A DNA stretch of 23,373 nt from a virus (IMGVR_UViG_2663763232_000005); one strand, 5' to 3'. Counted from the stretch's first letter, positions 2,975 to 23,373 are shown. Numbers and translations: made by a program. Notes: generated from the sequence alone by a model not told the origin.

Positions 2975-4053
2975 CAGAACGGGTCCTCCTGTACTCTGGC
3001 TTTTTTCTTTTTCCGCGCGCCGGGGGCTTCGGGTTCAGGCAGATAAGCATCAGGTGGGCCGACACGGATTTCCGTCAGGGTGCCGTTCTGGTCCTGAGTA
3101 AACGTGACTTCCGAGACAAGCAGTTCGGTATTGTCGAAACCACAGACCGGATCGAAGACAATCACCCGCTGGTTGGGCTGCCACAGCGTACCGTTACCCT
3201 GTCGCCAGCCCTGCACCACATAGGTGGTTTCATCCGTCCGCGCCGCCCGTTGTCGGGCTTCAAAGTCAGCACGCGCAATACAGCCTGCCCCCGTGGCCTG
3301 CCCTGTCTGCCTGATATACATCGGACGGTAACGAGCAATAAATGCGTCCTCTGTGCGGGCCCGCAGCGCGGTGGTGGTGGCCTCACCGAAATCATCGTCG
3401 TTTCCGGCACGCTGCCCCGCCACCTGGTAAACTGAAAACCGCTCCCGGATACTCTTCTCCGTATCACAGGAAAGGATGTTTTCCCCAAGTACCAGCGCGG
3501 TATGTGCCCGCGTTGAGCCAATACCGCCAATCACCAGCCTGCCGTGCGGGTCGTCATAAGCCAGCGCCTGCTGCTGACCGAGTATTTTGTTGATTACCTC
3601 AATCACCGTTTCACCGTGATCAGGCTGGACATCAGGAATAACACCCGACGGCGCACCGCTGTTCACCACCTCAATGCCGAAAGGCGCAGCAAGCGCCTGC
3701 GCAATCTGTACCAGCGATCGTCCGTTAAACTGTGTCGGTTCGGCTGCACAGTCAATCAGGTCAGCGGTCAGACTGCGTCCGGCAATACCGGTGCTGACCG
3801 AACGGGCATCGTAACGAACGGGCGTCGCCTCCACCCAGCCGGTGATCACCAGCTCATCACCAATCAGCACCTCCACTTTTGAACCGTTTTTAATGCGCGG
3901 CTGAAGCGTGGTGATACCCTCATCTCCCGGCCACTGGCGGGTGATCTCCACACTGAAATCCCGCGCCAGTCGTTCAACACCGGCACCGATGCGCACCGAT
4001 GTCCAGCCATTCCACTCCCGGCCATTTACCCGTAGCGTGACGTTATCGTTCAT
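2974..4053 (-). CDS. Baseplate hub protein (Mu gp44 / P2 gpD-like)
   Basis: 359-aa ORF between the gp43-like and gp45-like genes, with 4-nt overlap with gp43-like. Confidence 0.6.
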   Translation of the reverse strand: MNDNVTLRVNGREWNGWTSVRIGAGVERLARDFSVEITRQWPGDEGITTLQPRIKNGSKVEVLIGDELVITGWVEATPVRYDARSVSTGIAGRSLTADLIDCAAEPTQFNGRSLVQIAQALAAPFGIEVVNSGAPSGVIPDVQPDHGETVIEVINKILGQQQALAYDDPHGRLVIGGIGSTRAHTALVLGENILSCDTEKSIRERFSVYQVAGQRAGNDDDFGEATTTALRARTEDAFIARYRPMYIRQTGQATGAGCIARADFEARQRAARTDETTYVVQGWRQGNGTLWQPNQRVIVFDPVCGFDNTELLVSEVTFTQDQNGTLTEIRVGPPDAYLPEPEAPGARKKKKARVQEDPF

Positions 4054-5378
4054 TGCACTGGCACCTTCAGAGGGATCACCGGCACAAAGCCGGGATGCGT
4101 AATGGCATTACGCCGGATAATGTCCGCGTCACGCGCCGCGTTATCAAACCAGGTCGCCGCCAGCACCAGCGCGGGTAAAACCTCATCCGGCGTGCGCTGA
4201 ATGATCCGTGCAGACTGTTCAAGGCGCGTGTTGATATCCGCATTCAGATCTGCTTTCACCCGGCGCAGCGCCAGAAACAGCGCATCACTGGTTGTACGGG
4301 ACAACTCCTTATCAATTGCCGTATTCAGTGTGTCGCGAATGTCAGTCAGTTCTTCCCACGTCGGCAGATCAACCGTGTTTTTCACCGCCGGTGCATTGTT
4401 CAGTGCCGGATGCGTGACGGAAGGCCAGCCGGTGCTCTGCGCAGCTGTTGTTGCCTGCCCCACTGCGGCATCCTGCACCACCGCGGAAGTTGTTGGCGCA
4501 GGCAATCGGGTGACGGCATACGCCGCTTCGCTGATTGCGGTCGTACGAAGGGTGCTGGCAACCACGTTACGCTGCTGCGTCGCCGTAGCGGTGGTTTTAC
4601 TGTCCGTTTTCCAGACGCCGCGCGGTTGCAGATCGCTGCCGAGGCTGACACCGGAAAGCGTTTTGATCATGGTGACCAGGTCGCTGGCGTTACCATAAAG
4701 GCGTTTCCCGGTACGCCACATTTTCTGCACCTGCTCAACGAAATTTTTGCCTGACGATGGCGGCGGCAGAAGTACCGAGATATCCCCCTGCAACAGCCTG
4801 GCGGCATCCGATACGGCAGAATCCACCACTTTCATCGCATCAGAAATATACCCAAGCATTGTGCCGGCATTACCGACGACGTCGTTCTGCACAAAATCTG
4901 CCACGCCATCGATACTGAAACCACTGAAACTGTCACTGATGCAGTCATCCAGTGCAGAACAGGATGACATCAGCGTCTGCGCCGTCGCCGCACCTGATGT
5001 GGGGTAAGAGAGTTCTCCCGCTTCGACAAACTTCAGGTCAAAGCGGACAATACGCCCTTCACTTTTCGATGTGCTGACCCGAACTTCCCCATCAACACAG
5101 ACTTTCAGCTCACCATATGTCGGGTGGACAAGCGTGCCGGGACCGGGTTTATTCAGCGCTTCAATCAGGCGATCGCGCTGGTCAAAGCAGTCATCTCCCA
5201 CCACATAAGCTGTGATGGACGGGCGGAAAGTGACTTTTCCCAGATCTTCGGTATAGGGTTTGTCGCGGTTCGGATATTCGTGTGTTTCCACACGACGGCC
5301 GGTTCCCGCACTTTCTTCTTCAACCTTAAACGGCACACCTCGAAATGACGCATCCTGAAGCCTGTCTTTCCACGTCAT
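4050..5378 (-). CDS. Tail protein, DNA circulation protein family (Mu gp43/N-like)
   Basis: Track ORF starts at GTG 5384; the ATG at 5378 (MTWKDRLQDASFRGVPFKVEEE...) is preceded by GGAG 5 nt upstream and is the likelier start. About 442 aa, first gene after the tape measure/moron as in Mu-like tails. Confidence 0.7.
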   Translation of the reverse strand: MTWKDRLQDASFRGVPFKVEEESAGTGRRVETHEYPNRDKPYTEDLGKVTFRPSITAYVVGDDCFDQRDRLIEALNKPGPGTLVHPTYGELKVCVDGEVRVSTSKSEGRIVRFDLKFVEAGELSYPTSGAATAQTLMSSCSALDDCISDSFSGFSIDGVADFVQNDVVGNAGTMLGYISDAMKVVDSAVSDAARLLQGDISVLLPPPSSGKNFVEQVQKMWRTGKRLYGNASDLVTMIKTLSGVSLGSDLQPRGVWKTDSKTTATATQQRNVVASTLRTTAISEAAYAVTRLPAPTTSAVVQDAAVGQATTAAQSTGWPSVTHPALNNAPAVKNTVDLPTWEELTDIRDTLNTAIDKELSRTTSDALFLALRRVKADLNADINTRLEQSARIIQRTPDEVLPALVLAATWFDNAARDADIIRRNAITHPGFVPVIPLKVPVQ

Positions 5379-5385
5379 ATACACT

Positions 5386-5419
5386 CCGAAAATAAAAAAG
5401 CCACCTATTAGAAGGTGGC
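5386..5419 (-). terminator. Intrinsic terminator downstream of the moron ORF
   Basis: On the minus strand GCCACCT-TCTAAT-AGGTGGC (7-bp stem, 6-nt loop) is followed directly by TTTTTTATTTT. The U-tract runs into the RBS of the gp43-like gene. Confidence 0.75.
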
Positions 5420-5439
5420 CTTGTAATGAATTTTATTAA

Positions 5440-5970
5440 TTAGCGAGTCAGAAACAACGAATCTTTATACTTTTGCTGTTGTTCATTTAAATACTTAGCT
5501 GTTTCATCGCTGGCAAATGGAAATATTACCGTATTTTTAGGCATGGTAATTTCTTTTTTGTCCAGCGTCAGAGTAAACATAGGAACATACTGAGCAGAGT
5601 AACGCACCGCAGAAACGAGCTCTAGTTTAGACTCTTCAATAACACTTAAATTATCCAGGCTAACTTTCTCTTCATCTTTTTTCTTTGACGCATTTAAAGT
5701 TTTTATTACTTTATTTAATTTCTCCTGAAAATCCTCCTTAAAGTTTTCAGGATTGCCGTCGACAACAAGAATCTGTTCACCCTGATTATCTGGAAAAATA
5801 ATCTTTGCACTTATCAATTTATTTTCTTTATAAACATCACCAAGTTTTATGGCTCCTCCAGATAACTGAATAATATGTTCATCTTTAAAGGAGATGTTGC
5901 CAGAGATTATGAGAGATGAAAAAATAGCCGCTGCTCCAAGAATTACACTTGCTGTGATATAGCCTTTCAT
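5440..5970 (-). CDS. Moron-encoded secreted or membrane-anchored protein of unknown function
   Basis: 176-aa ORF, markedly AT- and Lys-rich compared with the flanking GC-rich tail genes. N-terminus MKGYITASVILGAAAIFSSLIISG looks like a signal peptide or signal anchor with no lipobox Cys. Bracketed by a promoter-like element upstream and a strong terminator downstream. Confidence 0.6.
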   Translation of the reverse strand: MKGYITASVILGAAAIFSSLIISGNISFKDEHIIQLSGGAIKLGDVYKENKLISAKIIFPDNQGEQILVVDGNPENFKEDFQEKLNKVIKTLNASKKKDEEKVSLDNLSVIEESKLELVSAVRYSAQYVPMFTLTLDKKEITMPKNTVIFPFASDETAKYLNEQQQKYKDSLFLTR

Positions 5971-6005
5971 TTTTCGCCTATTAACATTTTTCTAAATGTG
6001 CATTA

Positions 6006-6033
6006 ATTCTATCACTCTATTTATGACTTACAA
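6006..6033 (-). promoter_or_regulatory. Sigma70-like promoter candidate for the moron ORF
   Basis: Minus strand reads TTGTAA - 16 nt - TGaTAGAAT (extended -10), about 35 nt upstream of the ATG at 5970, in the AT-rich gap after the tape-measure stop. Hexamer match judged by eye only. Confidence 0.45.
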
Positions 6034-6061
6034 CCAGCAATACATGTGAGGGGAATTCTGG

Positions 6062-7894
6062 CTACCAAAATCGGGTATAGCCAACATCGTGATTTATATC
6101 AATGCCACTGGAGCGTGTTTCCGTAACCCGCATACCTGGTGGCATATTTATAAATGATACCTTGATCTCACCATCAACTTTTGGCGCGGTAGCTTTATTA
6201 ATCATGAAGGGATTCGGGCCTGTGGCATCGGAGGCGTTGTTTGCCTGAGCCGGATCCACCGCCGGATAAGGAGTGTATCCCCGTGCCGGTATCCCCGTCC
6301 CATAAGCATCATAAGCACCCGCGCCCCACTGCGCCGAGTTAATGGTATCGACCGTGTCACCGGAACTGTCGGTAAACCATTCAATAATCGGCTTCAGCTT
6401 ATCCCACATATCCTGAAACCACTTAACAACCGGTCCCCAGTTATTGATCACCATCCCCAGCGGCGACCAGGCAAAAACCTTCTTCAGAAGTTCCCGGCCA
6501 GCCTCAAAATAAGGACCAATGGTTTCCCAGAGCTTCTTGAAATAAGGTCCGACAACATCCCAGTTAGTGATAATTAATCCCGCAGCCAGAGCAATCGCCG
6601 TCGCAATCATGCCAATCGGCGTCATCGACATGATCCTGCTGACAATACTGATGGCACTGCCCACGCCCATCAATCCCAGTTTCAGAATCGCAAGACCGGC
6701 AGCAAGCCCGACGACGCCGCGAATAACCCGGGGATTTTCATCCGCAAACTTCGTGAATTTTTCCCCCAACTCCCCCAGCCATTGCGTGATATTTTTAGCG
6801 TCACCAGAAAATGCGCCGCCAATAGCTGCAAGACCGTTAGTTGCGGTCCCCGTCATTGCCTCCCACAGGTTGGACAGCGTACCAAGCTGTGCCTGAACAC
6901 GTTTATTCAGGCTGGCCTGTTTATTCATCTTCTGCTGGATCTGATCGTAACCATCCTTTCCTTTATCGATCAGAGCATTGACCACCTGAAGGGTTTCGGC
7001 ATCATCACCAAATATTGCCTTAAGTACACCTGTTCGCTTAACGTCGGTCAGTTTTCGCAGCTTTGCCAGTTGCTTAAACATGTTATCAAGACCGCCAAAA
7101 CTCCCTTTGCCATCAGTAAAATCGAGCTGTACCCCGAGTTTCTGGCGGGCCATGATTTTATTGACGTCCCTGATTTTCTTAACGCTTAATCCGGACTGGA
7201 TAACTTTTCGCAGGGCATTACCTGCCGACTCCCCGTTCATCCCCATCTGATCCATCATGACACTGATGGGGGCAAGACTCTGTGCAGCCTGAAGACCGTC
7301 CTTATTCACCATCTTCAGAACAGAGCTGGTTTTAGTGAAGAATGACAGCATGTTGGTGTCGTCAACGCCCAGATAAAACGCCTTCTGAATTGTGTCGAAC
7401 AGCCCCATCATGTCTTCTGAGGCCGTTCCGGTAGCATCCTGCATCTTTGCTGCAAACTCGGCAGCCGCTTCCGGTGTTTTTTTCAGTTGTACCGCAAGAT
7501 AAGCTGTCGCTTTACCCACACCACCCAGAATGTTTTCTGCCGGGATCCCCTGACGCACCAGCATCTGCATCATGTTCTGGAAATCAGCCGTTGTACCGGG
7601 TAGCTGGTTACCCAGGCCAATAGCCAGTTTATTGATGTCCTGAAAGCTCTTTCCAACCTCGCCGTTCGCATCCATCATGGCGACTTTCAGCCCGGTAGCG
7701 GCGTTTTCCTGATTGGCATAAGATTTCAGGGAAAGCGTCAGCCCCGCTGCCAGTCCGCCACCAAGCGCCAGCCCACCCTGTGACGCTTCTTCCGCCTGGC
7801 GTTTAAATCCCCGGATTTTCTTTTGCATTTTCGACAGCGCGGGAGAAAGCCTGTCGACACCGGTGATCAACGCCTTAAGCTCAAATTCAGCCAT
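6062..7894 (-). CDS. Tail tape measure protein
   Basis: 610-aa ORF directly downstream of the frameshifted chaperone pair; Gly/Ala-rich hydrophobic central stretch and helical-looking N-terminal part, typical of tape measure proteins. Confidence 0.8.
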   Translation of the reverse strand: MAEFELKALITGVDRLSPALSKMQKKIRGFKRQAEEASQGGLALGGGLAAGLTLSLKSYANQENAATGLKVAMMDANGEVGKSFQDINKLAIGLGNQLPGTTADFQNMMQMLVRQGIPAENILGGVGKATAYLAVQLKKTPEAAAEFAAKMQDATGTASEDMMGLFDTIQKAFYLGVDDTNMLSFFTKTSSVLKMVNKDGLQAAQSLAPISVMMDQMGMNGESAGNALRKVIQSGLSVKKIRDVNKIMARQKLGVQLDFTDGKGSFGGLDNMFKQLAKLRKLTDVKRTGVLKAIFGDDAETLQVVNALIDKGKDGYDQIQQKMNKQASLNKRVQAQLGTLSNLWEAMTGTATNGLAAIGGAFSGDAKNITQWLGELGEKFTKFADENPRVIRGVVGLAAGLAILKLGLMGVGSAISIVSRIMSMTPIGMIATAIALAAGLIITNWDVVGPYFKKLWETIGPYFEAGRELLKKVFAWSPLGMVINNWGPVVKWFQDMWDKLKPIIEWFTDSSGDTVDTINSAQWGAGAYDAYGTGIPARGYTPYPAVDPAQANNASDATGPNPFMINKATAPKVDGEIKVSFINMPPGMRVTETRSSGIDINHDVGYTRFW

Positions 7895-8069
7895 GTGTGC
7901 GTTTCTCCTGCTCTATCCTGTTTGCCTGACTGACCAGCAAGGGAATTTCACTGATCGGCATATTCAGCAATTCGAAGGGATTAATGCGCCAGTAGCTGGC
8001 GCAGTCAAAGAAGCGATCAGTGAGGTATTCAGCCGTCAGGCCTGGAGGAAAAAACCAGCCACAAGCCAC
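7887..8069 (-). CDS. Tail assembly chaperone, -1 frameshift extension ORF
   Basis: 60-aa ORF in the -1 frame relative to 8036..8305, overlapping it by 34 nt. The overlap contains the slippery heptamer T TTT TTC, and a -1 slip reproduces this ORF's sequence (PPGLTAEYLTDRFFDC...). Confidence 0.55.
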   Translation of the reverse strand: MACGWFFPPGLTAEYLTDRFFDCASYWRINPFELLNMPISEIPLLVSQANRIEQEKRTHG

Positions 8070-8305
8070 GCCGCTGCATTCAGGTCTGCCGGAGACATCT
8101 GGTCGACAGAGCTTTGCGGCACTTTCGCCAGCCGCACAATGTATTTCGACACCACATGCGCCAGAAGTCTGACGGACTCATCCTGATTCATCTGGTAGGG
8201 ATACCCCAGCTCGCGGACATCCTTCCCGGTGGGTTCATCAAACTCCAGTACGGAGAGTGTCTCACCATGAGCGATAATCGGTTTCTTTAACTCAAGCTCT
8301 TTCAT
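8036..8305 (-). CDS. Tail assembly chaperone (short, zero-frame product)
   Basis: 89-aa ORF between the tail tube and tape measure genes, the conserved position of the G/GT-type chaperone pair. Confidence 0.6.
   Translation of the reverse strand: MKELELKKPIIAHGETLSVLEFDEPTGKDVRELGYPYQMNQDESVRLLAHVVSKYIVRLAKVPQSSVDQMSPADLNAAAWLVAGFFLQA
8048..8054 (-). other. Programmed -1 ribosomal frameshift site (slippery heptamer T TTT TTC)
   Basis: Zero-frame codons GGT TTT TTC near the end of the 8036..8305 ORF; plus strand reads gaaaaaa at 8048..8054. Confidence 0.55.
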
Positions 8306-8661
8306 TACTGGTAATCCCCTTCTTCACCGTGGAACTCAAGATCAACCGTGCCTTCTTCGGCATTATGGTTCGCTTCTCCGTGCAGCCAGGCGGACGACAA
8401 TACATAGACCTGACCGTTCGCCAGCTCGGCAGTGATGGTCATCTCATCAGACGAGGTGATTTTACTCACCGGAAAATTCTTCGGCACCTTGAAGGTCCCT
8501 TTGACATAAGGCGCACGGTGAGTTTCCTTGCGGTCCACTGAACCGTCCAGGCCGATGATGTCATCATTGACCGTCCTGTTCATGGGCACCTCAATGCCGC
8601 CGGTCAGCGATAGCTGCTGACCGTCAATTTTGAAATAACAGGTTCCCCCGATACGGGCCAT
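8305..8661 (-). CDS. Tail tube protein (Mu gpM-like)
   Basis: 118-aa ORF immediately downstream of the sheath gene with 1-nt overlap; canonical sheath-tube order. Confidence 0.65.
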   Translation of the reverse strand: MARIGGTCYFKIDGQQLSLTGGIEVPMNRTVNDDIIGLDGSVDRKETHRAPYVKGTFKVPKNFPVSKITSSDEMTITAELANGQVYVLSSAWLHGEANHNAEEGTVDLEFHGEEGDYQ

Positions 8662-10157
8662 TATGCAGACTCCTCTGAATACTGAAGACGGAACTGGTTA
8701 ACCACGGCAAAAACACGCAACTGGTTAACATAGTCAGGCGGGAACAGCGTGTTCAGGCGGTTCGGAGCGCTGGCATCACGCTCCACAACCAGGTACTGCT
8801 TAAACAGTTCGTAGTTTTCCACGATCCCCGCACGCTCAAGCTGACGGTAGGTTGCCAGCAGTTCCCCTTTGATTACCGCCGGGGTGACAATCGCCTGACC
8901 GGGACCAAAGCGGGTACCGTCGCTGGCAAGCTTGTGACGCCCGTACTTACTGGTAATGACGGATTTCAGTTTGCGCAGTACATACGCACTGGTATGCAGC
9001 GTCTCGCTGTCGAGGTAGCTGTTATCCGCAACCCCGTAAGAATTTTTCCTGTACGTGGTGACATCACGCTGAATGCGCAGCACCCCGCTTTCGACATACG
9101 CCGTTGCCACGCCATGAGACAGCAGGGTCTGCTGCTCGGTCATCGTGAACCGTTTCCCCTTCGGCGCAGGCAGCATACCCACCAGCTCACCGGTCTGCGT
9201 GGGACGTGCCGGATCGTTGCGGATAAACACCGCTGCGCGGGCGGTACGGCTTGCCGCCAGCTCGTCGGCAGGCGTCTGGGTCTCTTTTTCGTACCCCGCC
9301 AGGGTGATGTGCTGCTGGTTAAACTGGTCACCTGCGTTCACCAGTTCTGACAGTGTGCCGGTCTTTGCCGTATACACATGACCATACAGCTGACGCGCAT
9401 AGCTCCAGCGACCGCTGGTATCGTTCATCTCGGTCACCAGCGTGTTAACGGAGGCCGTGTCGTTGAACGGCAGACCGATATAATCAAACGGCTCATCCGC
9501 CATTGCAGCCACCGCGCCGGTGAGAACCGGAGCGCCCGTTCCGGCGGTCCCCGTCGCCACGGCAATCTGTACGCCCGCTGGCAGCACTTCGCCCCCACCG
9601 AAGCCGTAGTAATTGAGGCTGACAGGAATTTCATTCCCGCAAAGCCCCTTATGACGCGCGGTCAGCGTGACAACACCAGCCGAAGATGAAGCTGTAAACG
9701 GCAGAGTCGGAACGGCATTGATGGCATCTTTGATACTGCTGGCAATCGTCGTGACGTTATCGCCGTTGGTCACCGGAGCCTGCACGCGGGTACGTCCCAC
9801 ATAGACATTCACCGTGCCGCTTTCGGTTGCTTCCCCGGTCACCGTCAGCGTAACCGTTGCCGCCGCGCCTGTGGCTTCCGGAACGGCAATCACATACAGC
9901 TCACCAAACGGGTCGGTCTGGCGATAAGCCTCGACCATACGCGCCAGCTGACTTCCCGCACCACAAATCTGGCGTGCATAGTCTGCCGACGGCATCAGCA
10001 CCAGACTGTTGGCAACAATCTCTGCACCGTTATTGGCATGACCAATCAGCAGCGATGCTCCGCTGTCCTGTGCAGTATTCGCAGCCTGGTTATCCATTTC
10101 CGCATAAAACAGCGGAACCAGCGTATTCGACGGAATGGTGTTAAAGCTTATCGTCAT
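8661..10157 (-). CDS. Contractile tail sheath protein (Mu gpL-like)
   Basis: 498-aa ORF, size and position typical of myovirus sheath proteins, followed by tube, chaperones and tape measure. Confidence 0.8.
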   Translation of the reverse strand: MTISFNTIPSNTLVPLFYAEMDNQAANTAQDSGASLLIGHANNGAEIVANSLVLMPSADYARQICGAGSQLARMVEAYRQTDPFGELYVIAVPEATGAAATVTLTVTGEATESGTVNVYVGRTRVQAPVTNGDNVTTIASSIKDAINAVPTLPFTASSSAGVVTLTARHKGLCGNEIPVSLNYYGFGGGEVLPAGVQIAVATGTAGTGAPVLTGAVAAMADEPFDYIGLPFNDTASVNTLVTEMNDTSGRWSYARQLYGHVYTAKTGTLSELVNAGDQFNQQHITLAGYEKETQTPADELAASRTARAAVFIRNDPARPTQTGELVGMLPAPKGKRFTMTEQQTLLSHGVATAYVESGVLRIQRDVTTYRKNSYGVADNSYLDSETLHTSAYVLRKLKSVITSKYGRHKLASDGTRFGPGQAIVTPAVIKGELLATYRQLERAGIVENYELFKQYLVVERDASAPNRLNTLFPPDYVNQLRVFAVVNQFRLQYSEESA

Positions 10158-19742: not shown

Positions 19743-19768
19743 AAATAAAAAGGCCACGCAACGTGGCC
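19743..19768 (-). terminator. Intrinsic terminator between the methyltransferase and holin genes
   Basis: On the minus strand GGCCACG-TTG-CGTGGCC (7-bp stem) is followed by TTTTTATTTCC, starting 8 nt after the methyltransferase stop. Confidence 0.6.
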
Positions 19769-19775
19769 ACCAGAA

Positions 19776-20828
19776 TTATTTCCCCACCAGTTCACTTACC
19801 TCTTTCACCGTCTGATTAAACCGCTCTGACTCAAGTTCAACACCTAACGCCCGACGCCCCAGCGCCATTGCTGCTTTTATTGTGGAACCGGATCCCATAA
19901 AGAAATCAGCAACCAGATCACCAGGTCGACTACTGGCATTGATTATTTGCCGGAGCATATCCGCCGGTTTCTCGCACGGATGTTTACCCGGGTAGAACTG
20001 AACGGGCTTATGCGTCCAGACATCGGTATAAGGCACGGAGACTGATACGGAGAAATAGCGCCGGAGAGATTTAAACTCATCCAGCAATTCAGAATATTTG
20101 CGATTCAGTGAATCATAAGATGCCACCAGCTGGTGGTGTGGTTGTTCCAGTTGTTGTTCCTGAAACTTCTCTGCCGCTATACGGGAAAACAGTGCCTGTA
20201 ACTTCCGATAGTCAGCCTCATTCGGCAACTGCCACTGACTGGCACCAAACCAGTGGGAAACCATATTTTTCTTACCTGTGGCTTCGGCAATTTGTTTTGC
20301 CGTTATACCCAGTTCGGCACGAGCATCCCTGAAATACGATATCAGCGGTGCCATTATGTGCTGTTTGAGTTCCCTTTCTTTTGCCGCATAGCCGTCACTT
20401 TTGCCGCGATATGGCCCCTGGTAATGTTCAGCAAACAGAACGCGCTCTGTAGCGGGGAAATATGCCCGCAGGCTTTCTTTATTACACCCGTTCCATCGTC
20501 CGGACGGCTTCGCCCAGATGATATGGTTAAGCACGTTGAAACGTTCACGCATCATGATCTCGATATCAGATGCGAGGCGATGTCCACAGAACAGGTAAAG
20601 GCTTCCGGCTGGTTTCAGTACCCGCCAGAACTGGGCCAGACAGTAGTCCAGCCACTTCAGGTAATCTTCGTCCCCTTTCCACTGATTGTCCCAGCCGTTG
20701 GGCTTCACTTTGAAGTACGGCGGATCGGTAACAATCAGATCAATGGAATCATCAGGCAAGGACTGAATAAAATGCAGGCAATCAGCGTTGATTAAATCAA
20801 CACTGTTTATTTTTACAGTATTTTTCAT
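19776..20828 (-). CDS. DNA methyltransferase, beta-class N6-adenine/N4-cytosine (orphan, no endonuclease partner in window)
   Basis: 350-aa ORF with motif IV DPPY near the N-terminus (IDLIVTDPPYF) and motif I FxGxG near the C-terminus (VADFFMGSGST), the order diagnostic of beta-class amino-methyltransferases. No Shine-Dalgarno is visible before the ATG. Confidence 0.85.
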   Translation of the reverse strand: MKNTVKINSVDLINADCLHFIQSLPDDSIDLIVTDPPYFKVKPNGWDNQWKGDEDYLKWLDYCLAQFWRVLKPAGSLYLFCGHRLASDIEIMMRERFNVLNHIIWAKPSGRWNGCNKESLRAYFPATERVLFAEHYQGPYRGKSDGYAAKERELKQHIMAPLISYFRDARAELGITAKQIAEATGKKNMVSHWFGASQWQLPNEADYRKLQALFSRIAAEKFQEQQLEQPHHQLVASYDSLNRKYSELLDEFKSLRRYFSVSVSVPYTDVWTHKPVQFYPGKHPCEKPADMLRQIINASSRPGDLVADFFMGSGSTIKAAMALGRRALGVELESERFNQTVKEVSELVGK

Positions 20829-21482: not shown

Positions 21483-22415
21483 ATGACTACTACAGCCACT
21501 TCCGCGCCACTAACTAAACAAAAAAAAATGCGTATCGGTTTCTTCCAAAGCTCCTCAGGAACGAAGTCAACTACATCAAATGCACAACTTGCATTTGACA
21601 ACATGTATACAACCATTGTTACACCTTCGCAAAATTCTTATACCGCTGAGTTTGATAAGAAAAAATTAAAGATTGTATTCTTAGAAAAAGACGCACAGGC
21701 GGAGTTCTATTTTGGTTATCTATCATGCTCTCGTGATGGTTTCCACTTACCTTATATTGGTGATGAAAATTGGGATGAGCACAATATTCCGTTAGATGAT
21801 AAAAAATATATAGTCGAACGCACTTATTTTATTTACTACTATAAGAAAGACATTCTTGTTTTATCTCAAAATCATTTAGGACCTAAAGTTTCCGATTTAG
21901 CATTTCTTTTATTCAATTTTTCTGAAGAAAACAAACCTGTAGCGTTTGAGGCAATTTGGAAAAAAGAAAGTGTAAAAGAACTACTTGAAACAGGAAGCAC
22001 TTTACGTAGCTGTGAAATTACACTCGCCGCTCCACGTAATTTTAGCGCAACGGATTATGACCTTTCGAATTCATTTTCCAAAAGTATGATTGAAATGATG
22101 GCTGGGATGGGCGGTTCGCATTTAAAACTATCACTTAGAGGTAGAGCATCGCAACGTAAATTAATCCGTGGTTATCTCAGTGATGAAGTAAAAAGTGGAA
22201 TAAAGGAATTAATAGAAAAAGTTCCTCACTTATTACGTAAAGCTAATGTCACTGAACCTAAAAATACTCATTCAAGGAGTCTTCTCAATCAAGTTCTGAT
22301 CAGTGAAAAAAACATTAACACAAAAGATGGCTACGCAAAAGAAACAGATGTGCGTACTGCCTTGATCAGTGCTAAAATTGAACATGGTCAGTATTTAAAG
22401 CAATATGAAATCTGA
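21483..22415 (+). CDS. Hypothetical soluble protein, first gene of an AT-rich two-gene cargo cassette (candidate defence/exclusion sensor)
   Basis: 310-aa ORF on the strand opposite to all phage late genes; AT-rich and Lys/Asn/Ile-rich. AAGGG lies 8 nt before the ATG. No motif I recognise; SSSGTKST is not a canonical Walker A. Confidence 0.6.
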   Translation: MTTTATSAPLTKQKKMRIGFFQSSSGTKSTTSNAQLAFDNMYTTIVTPSQNSYTAEFDKKKLKIVFLEKDAQAEFYFGYLSCSRDGFHLPYIGDENWDEHNIPLDDKKYIVERTYFIYYYKKDILVLSQNHLGPKVSDLAFLLFNFSEENKPVAFEAIWKKESVKELLETGSTLRSCEITLAAPRNFSATDYDLSNSFSKSMIEMMAGMGGSHLKLSLRGRASQRKLIRGYLSDEVKSGIKELIEKVPHLLRKANVTEPKNTHSRSLLNQVLISEKNINTKDGYAKETDVRTALISAKIEHGQYLKQYEI

Positions 22416-22925: not shown

Positions 22926-23288
22926 TTAATCCATATCTAAGCTAACATTTAGAATAGCTAGACAACCTTCTATAAATCCCTCAGCCATCTGTATCTCAAT
23001 GCGTATTATTTTCTCATCCTTTTTGCGAGCTTTAGCGAGCTTTCTTTTAGAGATACCGTATAGGTAATGGGCAACAAGAAGCGAGTGTTCTTCAGGTCTT
23101 TTTTGCTTTAGACGAGCAAGACAACCTTCAATAATTAATGCATCACTATCTGAACAAGCCTGACGTGTTTTGCTTGTATAGGGAAGAAGCCCTTTAAACC
23201 CAGCAGCTATAGGCGAATAGTCTACCCCAGAACTATCACTCGCCGCCCATGCACCCCAACGATCCAGAACCATCTGAATATCACGCAT
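22926..23288 (-). CDS. Late-gene antiterminator Q (phage 82 / QuuD-like family)
   Basis: Track ORF runs to 23366, but the ATG at 23288 is preceded by GGAG 7 nt upstream and gives MRDIQMVLDRWGAWAASDSSGVDYSPIAAGFKGLLP..., which resembles the QuuD-type Q N-terminus as I recall it. Confidence 0.65.
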   Translation of the reverse strand: MRDIQMVLDRWGAWAASDSSGVDYSPIAAGFKGLLPYTSKTRQACSDSDALIIEGCLARLKQKRPEEHSLLVAHYLYGISKRKLAKARKKDEKIIRIEIQMAEGFIEGCLAILNVSLDMD

Positions 23289-23373
23289 CAACTTTCTCCA
23301 CAAAATCAGGCCAGCATGACCTGCTCCCCGTTGATTAGTACACCCCGATGTTAGTAATGTCTTCATAAGCCAC

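Follow-up and report, generated by a model that had tools for sequence, protein, structure and literature searches.

The definition of a phage moron (Juhala/Hendrix) is summarized in PMC3594210. HK97 gp15 is a moron located beside the tape measure gene; its product is an inner-membrane protein that blocks DNA entry in a tail-dependent manner, and it has bacterial homologues outside prophages, the chromosomal YebO relatives (PMC3594210). Tab of JBD26 is a late-operon moron that is expressed from the prophage (PMC10884400). Here, we describe a gene for a 176-residue protein, hereafter the cargo, that lies between the tape measure gene and the gp43-like gene in the tail operon of a prophage on the viral contig IMGVR_UViG_2663763232_000005 (23,373 nucleotides, hereafter the window). 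The prophage is an SfV-like temperate phage of Escherichia coli with an HK97-type head and a contractile, Mu-type tail. The cargo is a moron-type accessory gene for a predicted exported protein; it is dispensable for the virion, selected and position-locked, and it is not a structural gene.

Temperate phages alter the phenotype of their hosts, and the susceptibility of these hosts to phages, mainly through morons, few of which have a known function. Small phage proteins that are exported to the envelope and target either a receptor or the tail or tape measure protein of an incoming phage include Llp of T5, Cor of phi80 and N15, Ltp of the Streptococcus phage TP-J34, and SieA of P22. Superinfection exclusion by HK97 gp15 was reportedly described by Juhala et al. 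in 2000 and by Cumby et al. in 2012, and Rousset et al. are said to have described defence hot spots in P2 and P4 prophages in 2022. The moron class itself is known; of added interest here are an uncharacterized family for which no related fold is known, the deep linkage of this family to the tape measure/hub junction, and a hot spot that holds mostly envelope proteins.

The unit and its borders comprise the following features.

6062–7894, minus strand: tail tape measure protein, the upstream flank (610 residues; PF10145, E = 1.5e-26; 97.5% identity to SfV orf14)
6064–6062, minus strand: tape measure stop codon TAG, read from the sequence
5971–6061, minus strand: AT-rich leader of 91 bp from the tape measure stop to the cargo ATG, holding the promoter-like site and a weak ribosome-binding site (RBS), AGG, at 5979–5977
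6006–6033, minus strand: sigma-70 promoter-like site from scan and reading, with a −35 TTGTAA (6033–6028), a 16-nt spacer and an extended −10 TGaTAGAAT (6014–6006)
5440–5970, minus strand: cargo gene with an ATG start, 176-residue protein (WP_000679479.1, PHROG 5485)
5899–5964, minus strand: hydrophobic signal or anchor segment, codons 3–24 (GYITASVILGAAAIFSSLIISG), with a Kyte-Doolittle 19-residue mean of 2.1
5389–5422, minus strand: intrinsic terminator with a 10-bp stem and a 6-nt loop (5422–5397), then TTTTTTATTTT (RNAfold −15.3 kcal/mol)
5376–5387, minus strand: RBS GGAG (5387–5384) and ATG (5378–5376) of the gp43-like gene, directly after the T-run
4050–5378, minus strand: DNA-circulation protein (Mu gp43/N-like), the downstream flank (PF07157, E = 3.6e-34; 98.2% identity to SfV orf15)

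The gap between the tape measure and gp43-like genes is 45–60 bp in SfV and in vB_EcoM-689R6 (689R6), compared to ∼680 bp in the window, and both phages have tail proteins with 97–100% identity to those of the window. Similarity to SfV is lost at the final 2–3 codons of the tape measure gene and is regained at the block of T-run, RBS and ATG, TTTTTTAT..GGAGTxTATATG. As the cargo is absent from SfV and 689R6 despite near-identical tail proteins, it is not a required component of the virion. We therefore rejected a role as a tail structural gene, since both phages lack it and an unrelated gene replaces it in SKA5. A preliminary description of this region had proposed an insertion relative to related prophages, and the comparison bears this out: extra DNA lies between genes that are adjacent in SfV and 689R6, and the gene is not a conserved structural component of the virion in these relatives.

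The cargo open reading frame (ORF) is a real gene, with full-length homologues at 30–59% identity, intact copies and a confidently predicted structure. An AT- and lysine-rich ORF of 176 residues within a GC-rich tail operon, as first described, is indeed present on the minus strand. The protein begins with MKGYITASVILGAAAIFSSLIISGNISFK and contains 21 lysines (11.9%) and no cysteine. Its gene has a GC content of 0.34, compared to 0.51–0.56 for the flanks; the 300-bp GC profile drops from 0.53–0.60 outside to 0.32–0.34 across the ORF, and no other 500-bp stretch of the window has a GC content as low as the cargo region (0.326; window mean, 0.527). The 72 full-length copies of the unit in IMG/VR represent 35 alleles, and all 72 have an intact ORF, free of stops and frameshifts. 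Their variable sites are synonymous in 14 cases and nonsynonymous in 9, although nonsynonymous sites are about three times more numerous, which indicates purifying selection. Among 5,426 complete E. coli genomes, 179 contain the 676-bp unit at 99% identity or above, and at least 1,000 public contigs encode the identical protein. RefSeq annotates WP_000679479.1 as a hypothetical protein; enterotoxigenic E. coli (ETEC) H10407, a studied strain, carries it as ETEC_RS01640 (NC_017633.1, 325809–326339). A literature search returned nothing specific for the accession or for this locus tag, and a tblastn search of deposited phage genomes with the cargo protein gave no matches.

The plus strand of 5386–6061 contains no ORF of 60 residues or more. 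It does contain an antisense promoter-like site within the cargo ORF (TTGCCA-17-AAAAAT with a TG, 5897–5925), which is probably a by-product of AT-richness. The cargo-bearing junction of E. coli strain EC21Z-014 (NZ_CP101274.1, 871215–873537; H165) contains an annotated transposase of the IS5 family, at which the match falls into two pieces; this suggests insertion of IS5 into the AT-rich unit. The cargo-bearing tail module is also found in five PLSDB records (19–64 kb, with one of 1.31 Mb) that are labelled as non-mobilizable plasmids. These initially resembled excised phage circles, but the one inspected (CP088862.1, L106) is a prophage fragment accompanied by chromosomal genes and IS26; its plasmid label is probably an artefact of assembly or labelling, rather than the sign of a phage-plasmid.

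The cargo protein is predicted to be exported. Lys2 is followed by 22 uncharged residues, and an N-terminal Lys or Arg with a hydrophobic segment of 17–22 residues is kept in 61 of 63 family members. We took a positively charged n-region followed by a hydrophobic segment of at least 15 residues, present across the family, as the mark of Sec export or membrane anchoring, and the cargo bears it. An AlphaFold model calculated with the alignment of 63 sequences (predicted local distance difference test, pLDDT, 91.5; predicted template modelling score, pTM, 0.76) consists of a helix (residues 3–23), four strands, a long helix (74–93), two long strands and a second long helix (149–171). The N-terminal signal peptide or anchor noted in the preliminary description, thus, coincides with a conserved segment and with a modelled transmembrane (TM) helix. 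The domain that follows is ∼150 residues long and is modelled in the order β-β-β-β-α-β-β-α.

An exhaustive profile search defined the family as 77 clusters at 50% identity, mostly of 170–200 residues. Its best-conserved motif, NII.TT.G.V.LG.VY.E, is located directly after the hydrophobic segment and reads GGAIKLGDVYKE in the window protein; GG.VKLG.VYKE is a conserved motif, and Tyr124 and Leu134 are also conserved. Searches of Pfam, NCBIfam and PADLOC identified no family for the cargo protein, PHROGs returned only families of unknown function, and PDB sequence searches with both profiles gave no significant match. Across all 63 family members, Pfam produced only scattered, single weak matches, none of them to a relevant family. 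The PADLOC-DB 2.0 defence models contained no match at E ≤ 1 for the window cargo or for the SKA5-type cargo.

The sole significant structural neighbour in BFVD is a 144-residue “Lipoprotein” of the Pseudomonas phage ventosus (E = 1e-6, TM-score 0.66), a strictly lytic phage of 97 kb in which the gene occupies MG018930 51995–52429 on the minus strand. This protein has a clear lipobox (LLTGC) and matches the family profile, including the signature motif in the form DTIIHTRSAVVNVGEV. A loose lipobox-like pattern is found in 9 of the 63 family members, and the window protein has none. As judged from these sequences, members of the family are anchored by a TM helix in some cases and by a lipid in others, and they occur in phages of both lytic and temperate lifestyles. 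The ventosus lipoprotein supports an extracytoplasmic location and a role on the side of the phage. Since one branch is anchored by a membrane helix and another by a lipid, the domain is predicted to reside outside the cytoplasm. Distant members of the family are chromosomal bacterial genes, with neighbours that include gluconate 2-dehydrogenase/cytochrome c, Band_7/BOF, thioredoxin and a HigA-like gene; three distant members, searched against viral contigs, gave no matches.

Homologues of the cargo are found at the same junction in more distant phages, at the following identities.

L005 and L010 (Leclercia), L096 (IMG/VR contig) and L017 (Edwardsiella): cargo 41–59%; tail proteins 36–93%, most 61–86%
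L098 (contig): cargo 30%; tail proteins 22–82%
L112 (contig): cargo 34%; tail proteins 26–45%

A further homologue from Lelliottia (54% identity) is known from its protein sequence, and the same-junction set is, thus, limited to the six loci above. The homologues at the junction remain at 31–39% GC between flanks of 47–57%, and each has its own hairpin terminator. The cargo has, therefore, diverged roughly in step with the tail module, with AT-richness as a maintained trait. Because the same bias is seen in homologues down to 30% identity, low GC is no sign of recent transfer here, and, by these alignments, the cargo is an ancient resident of the junction and not a recent insertion. The preliminary view of a moron inserted into the tail operon holds insofar as extra AT-rich DNA separates two tail genes; what does not hold is a recent arrival, given homologues of 30–59% identity at the same junction.

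The tape measure/gp43 junction is a multi-cargo hot spot. It was identified in ∼1,090 of the 5,426 complete E. coli genomes and accommodates at least five alternative cargos.

Window 176-residue protein: 173 genomes
164-residue signal-peptide protein, also in phage SKA5 (PHROG 8976): 84 genomes
tRNA_anti-like OB-fold protein with an N-terminal membrane helix, opposite strand: 75 genomes
225-residue lipoprotein with the lipobox LLGGC: 54 genomes
Cytoplasmic bPH_1 protein: 28 genomes

The four cargos other than the window gene account for 241 genomes in total, and three of the four are predicted envelope proteins, such that four of the five cargos are predicted to be envelope proteins. All five are AT-rich (GC 31–42%). 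In an evenly spaced sample of the matches, 26–27 of 60 junctions (∼45%) are empty. The junction variants compared were the window (5376–6064) and loci L002 and L003 (both empty), L004/L013, L014, L015, L016 and L109. The possibility that the cargos are diverged alleles of a single gene was rejected, as profile comparison with hhalign shows no relationship between them. The three cargos other than the window and SKA5-type cargos have no PADLOC match at E ≤ 0.01. Identity of the flanking DNA is 97.4–99.3% among the listed carriers of the window cargo, compared to 92–96% between carriers and other junction states; thus, the cargo state is linked to lineage and is not constantly reshuffled. We found no paper describing this junction of SfV-like phages as a hot spot. 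A separate observation concerns the next interval of the operon: in the Leclercia-type relatives L005–L009 (∼8013–9808), two extra ORFs of 503–507 and 94 residues are located between gp43 and gp44. These have no Pfam family on record and are missing from the window and SfV, making the gp43–gp44 interval another variable site in the baseplate operon.

The promoter-like element upstream of the cargo, TTGTAA-16-TGaTAGAAT, is present as originally described, with the TG of the extended −10 at 6014–6013 and the −10 hexamer TAGAAT at 6011–6006. It is invariant across the 72 full-length IMG/VR copies, in which the upstream variable sites total only six. Promoter-like matches are not enriched in the surroundings (3 observed compared to 3.5 expected in 1.8 kb, and 8 compared to 13 in 20 kb). 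When the 91-bp leader is shuffled, a match by the scan criteria arises in 14% of cases, and in 0.8% if the TG of an extended −10 is also required. Diverged homologues have promoter-like sites upstream as well (TTGTCA-16-TATAAT in L096 and TGtTATAAT in L017), with no conservation of sequence. A cargo promoter is, thus, a plausible prediction. The scan revealed no terminator in the interval that separates the cargo from the tape measure gene. Directly 5′ of the cargo start, AGGCGAA (window 5971–5980) also occurs in L098 (∼5990–6000), whose cargo is 30% identical; the remainder of the leader is unconserved.

The hairpin terminator belongs to the junction and not to the cargo alone. Across 20 kb of the late operon, strong terminators on the minus strand number just two, the cargo-side one and another at 19768–19752 before the holin gene. 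The sole polymorphism in the stem among the IMG/VR copies, a C to T change at 5414, retains a G-U pair. However, empty sites also contain a GC-rich hairpin and T-run just before the gp43 RBS, with −12.6 kcal/mol in SfV and −13.6 kcal/mol in 689R6; the hairpin and T-run of these empty junctions (L002 3553–3599 and L003 3538–3599, respectively) read GTCCCACTCCGGTGGGATTTTTT. A hairpin with a T-run is found in every junction variant, the other folded variants ranging from −11.8 to −21.2 kcal/mol (the L017 hairpin is unscored), and the block of T-run, RBS and ATG before the gp43-like gene is likewise common to all of them. In the bPH variant, the hairpin is very similar to the SfV one.

As empty junctions also carry a terminator, its presence does not prove an autonomous unit, and we rejected that argument on the evidence of SfV and 689R6. 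The strong terminator with a U-tract abutting the next RBS is, therefore, real as first reported, but by itself it does not mark an autonomous moron. A mid-tail-operon terminator is, instead, a constant of the SfV-like group, which might be an attenuator that adjusts how much tube and sheath is made relative to the baseplate proteins, or a remnant of a lost cargo. The unit, nonetheless, has the attributes of a moron: extra DNA between genes adjacent in relatives, a deviant base composition, and a terminator (shared with the empty site). The classic layout put forward in the preliminary description can, thus, be retained for the extra DNA, the deviant GC, the promoter-like site, the terminator and the Q gene in the operon, with the amendments that the terminator is borne by the junction and that the gene is old.

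The Mu-type tail module around the cargo is complete, with sheath, tube, chaperone, tape measure, gp43, gp44, gp45, gp46 and gp47, and the late operon that holds it is headed by an antiterminator gene.

22926–23366, minus strand: Q antiterminator gene (PF06530, E = 6e-52)

Rfam and tRNA scans of the whole window gave no matches.

Based on these features, we tentatively consider superinfection exclusion at the envelope as the most likely function of the cargo, by analogy with described systems. In the lysogen, the cargo would be transcribed from its own extended −10 promoter, with the transcript ending at the hairpin that precedes gp43. In the lytic cycle, RNA polymerase modified by Q would come from the late promoter and transcribe the tape measure gene and the cargo, reading through the terminator as well. 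The membrane-anchored periplasmic domain could hinder the tail tip or tape measure protein of an incoming phage, or an entry factor located in the periplasm or inner membrane, such that the DNA of this phage would not cross the inner membrane, as with HK97 gp15. Being closely linked to the genes for the tape measure and hub, the exclusion protein would stay matched to its own tail type. A more specific version, which we regard as rather unlikely, is that the cargo represents an undescribed, new-fold family of membrane-anchored periplasmic proteins, co-evolved with Mu-type tape measure and hub genes since before their divergence to ∼30–45% identity, that act directly on the tape measure protein or tail tip at the inner membrane and, in a manner specific for the tail type, block or gatekeep genome delivery.

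Several observations weigh against exclusion from the prophage. The terminator is present in empty junctions and may, thus, have no role for the cargo; a promoter motif of this kind has, on its own, only a moderately low probability by chance; and an island of 34% GC is a typical H-NS target in E. coli, such that the gene may be silenced. Co-divergence with the tail module also fits a role in the phage's own lytic cycle. A second SfV-like junction was found in 6 of 60 carrier genomes, compared to 5 of 50 sampled non-carrier genomes, which gives no sign that related phages are kept out, although this test is weak, with acquisition order, immunity group and prophage decay uncontrolled. The lack of depletion of related prophages in carriers would suit a host-fitness or lysogenic-conversion factor, in which the exported protein alters the lysogen envelope (stress, serum or bile resistance, adhesion, colonization). 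λ Bor and Lom are precedents for lysogenic conversion that alters the envelope. The moron layout and the exported product fit such a factor equally well, the chromosomal members of the family suggest a housekeeping envelope role borrowed by the phage, and a related lysogen of the same prophage type carries gtr O-antigen-modification genes. There is no evident reason, however, for a gene of this kind to stay at a tail-gene junction while the tail diverges to 26–45% identity across genera with different lifestyles, and lysogenic conversion is impossible in the strictly lytic 97-kb Pseudomonas phage that has the remote homologue. We, thus, consider a host-fitness role improbable, though to be kept in view.

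The lipoprotein of that lytic phage also accords with a late-expressed accessory of the lytic cycle, made by read-through only, that might, as T5 Llp does, keep progeny from releasing their DNA into lysing cells or debris, or might help in handling the tail tip or tape measure at the inner membrane, with the promoter motif being fortuitous. Late co-transcription must occur, as no terminator separates the cargo from the tape measure gene; at an unchanged position, the divergence of the cargo parallels that of the tail module, the junction has a terminator even without a cargo, and the chance expectation for the promoter motif is 14%. Such an accessory is, nevertheless, unlikely, since the cargo is dispensable, with SfV, 689R6 and 26–27 of the 60 sampled junctions empty and others holding unrelated genes, and since one alternative cargo lies on the opposite strand, beyond the reach of late transcription. 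Recurrence of promoter-like sites upstream of diverged homologues (L096 and L017) and persistent AT-richness, which is typical of independently regulated morons, further argue for expression of its own. A selfish or neutral hitch-hiker, i.e. a decaying or functionless insert kept by prophage linkage, might be suspected from the lack of a known function or domain and from the IS5 element in the region in one genome (H165), but it is very improbable for an ORF that is intact in 72 of 72 copies, with 14 synonymous and 9 nonsynonymous variable sites, full-length homologues down to 30% identity, conserved motifs and a confidently predicted fold. Superinfection exclusion, thus, remains the function that we favour.

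A second AT-rich island (∼21.1–23.3 kb, GC 0.38) is located between the Q antiterminator and the lysis genes of the window. Its ORFs are on the plus strand, against the direction of the late operon.

21483–22415, plus strand: DUF6731 protein of 310 residues
22430–22882, plus strand: protein of 150 residues with no family
19776–20828, minus strand: type II-like DNA methyltransferase, adjoining the island from outside and followed by the terminator at 19768–19752 and the holin gene

Neither plus-strand ORF has a match in PADLOC, and our literature search found no paper mentioning DUF6731. The interval from Q to the lysis genes is a classic hot spot, and this island could be an uncharacterized cassette with a defence or accessory role.

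The cargo is common: ∼3% of the complete genomes of E. coli contain it, that of ETEC H10407 among them, yet it is always annotated as “hypothetical”. With an extracytoplasmic domain of unknown fold, a locked position and a location in a hot spot, it is a tractable candidate for a new, injection-level exclusion of contractile-tailed phages. If it is indeed a blocker specific for tail type, temperate phages of the myovirus type would have a new class of exclusion that acts at the level of injection, encoded in a hot spot that collects envelope-acting cargo. The locus also carries a warning for annotation, in that low GC and a flanking terminator alone are no indication of a recent, autonomous insertion.

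Compared to the described systems, the cargo has most in common with HK97 gp15. Both are AT-biased inserts of one gene that directly adjoin the tape measure gene in a tail operon and are missing from close relatives; both products have an N-terminal membrane segment, and both have relatives that are chromosomal bacterial genes outside prophages. However, the two proteins have no sequence relationship, as the cargo has no Pfam match at E ≤ 0.01, YebO included, and the cargo protein is larger, with its folded, predicted extracytoplasmic domain of ∼150 residues. The positions also differ, the cargo being downstream of the tape measure gene of a contractile Mu-type tail and gp15 upstream of that of a siphovirus tail. 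The exclusion activity of gp15 has been demonstrated, whereas that of the cargo is only inferred.

Llp, Cor, Ltp and SieA offer a second comparison. The remote family homologue in ventosus is a genuine phage lipoprotein, in keeping with this group of envelope proteins. The window protein, in contrast, lacks a lipobox and cysteine and shows no similarity to them in Pfam, PADLOC or PDB searches, such that a resemblance in function, by analogy, is what we infer. With respect to the junction itself, the cargos are mostly single envelope proteins, unlike the multi-gene systems of the P2 and P4 hot spots, and have no PADLOC match. In common with those hot spots and with Tab of JBD26, the tape measure/gp43 junction is a fixed site between conserved phage genes where alternative, unrelated AT-rich cargos are found in near-identical phages.

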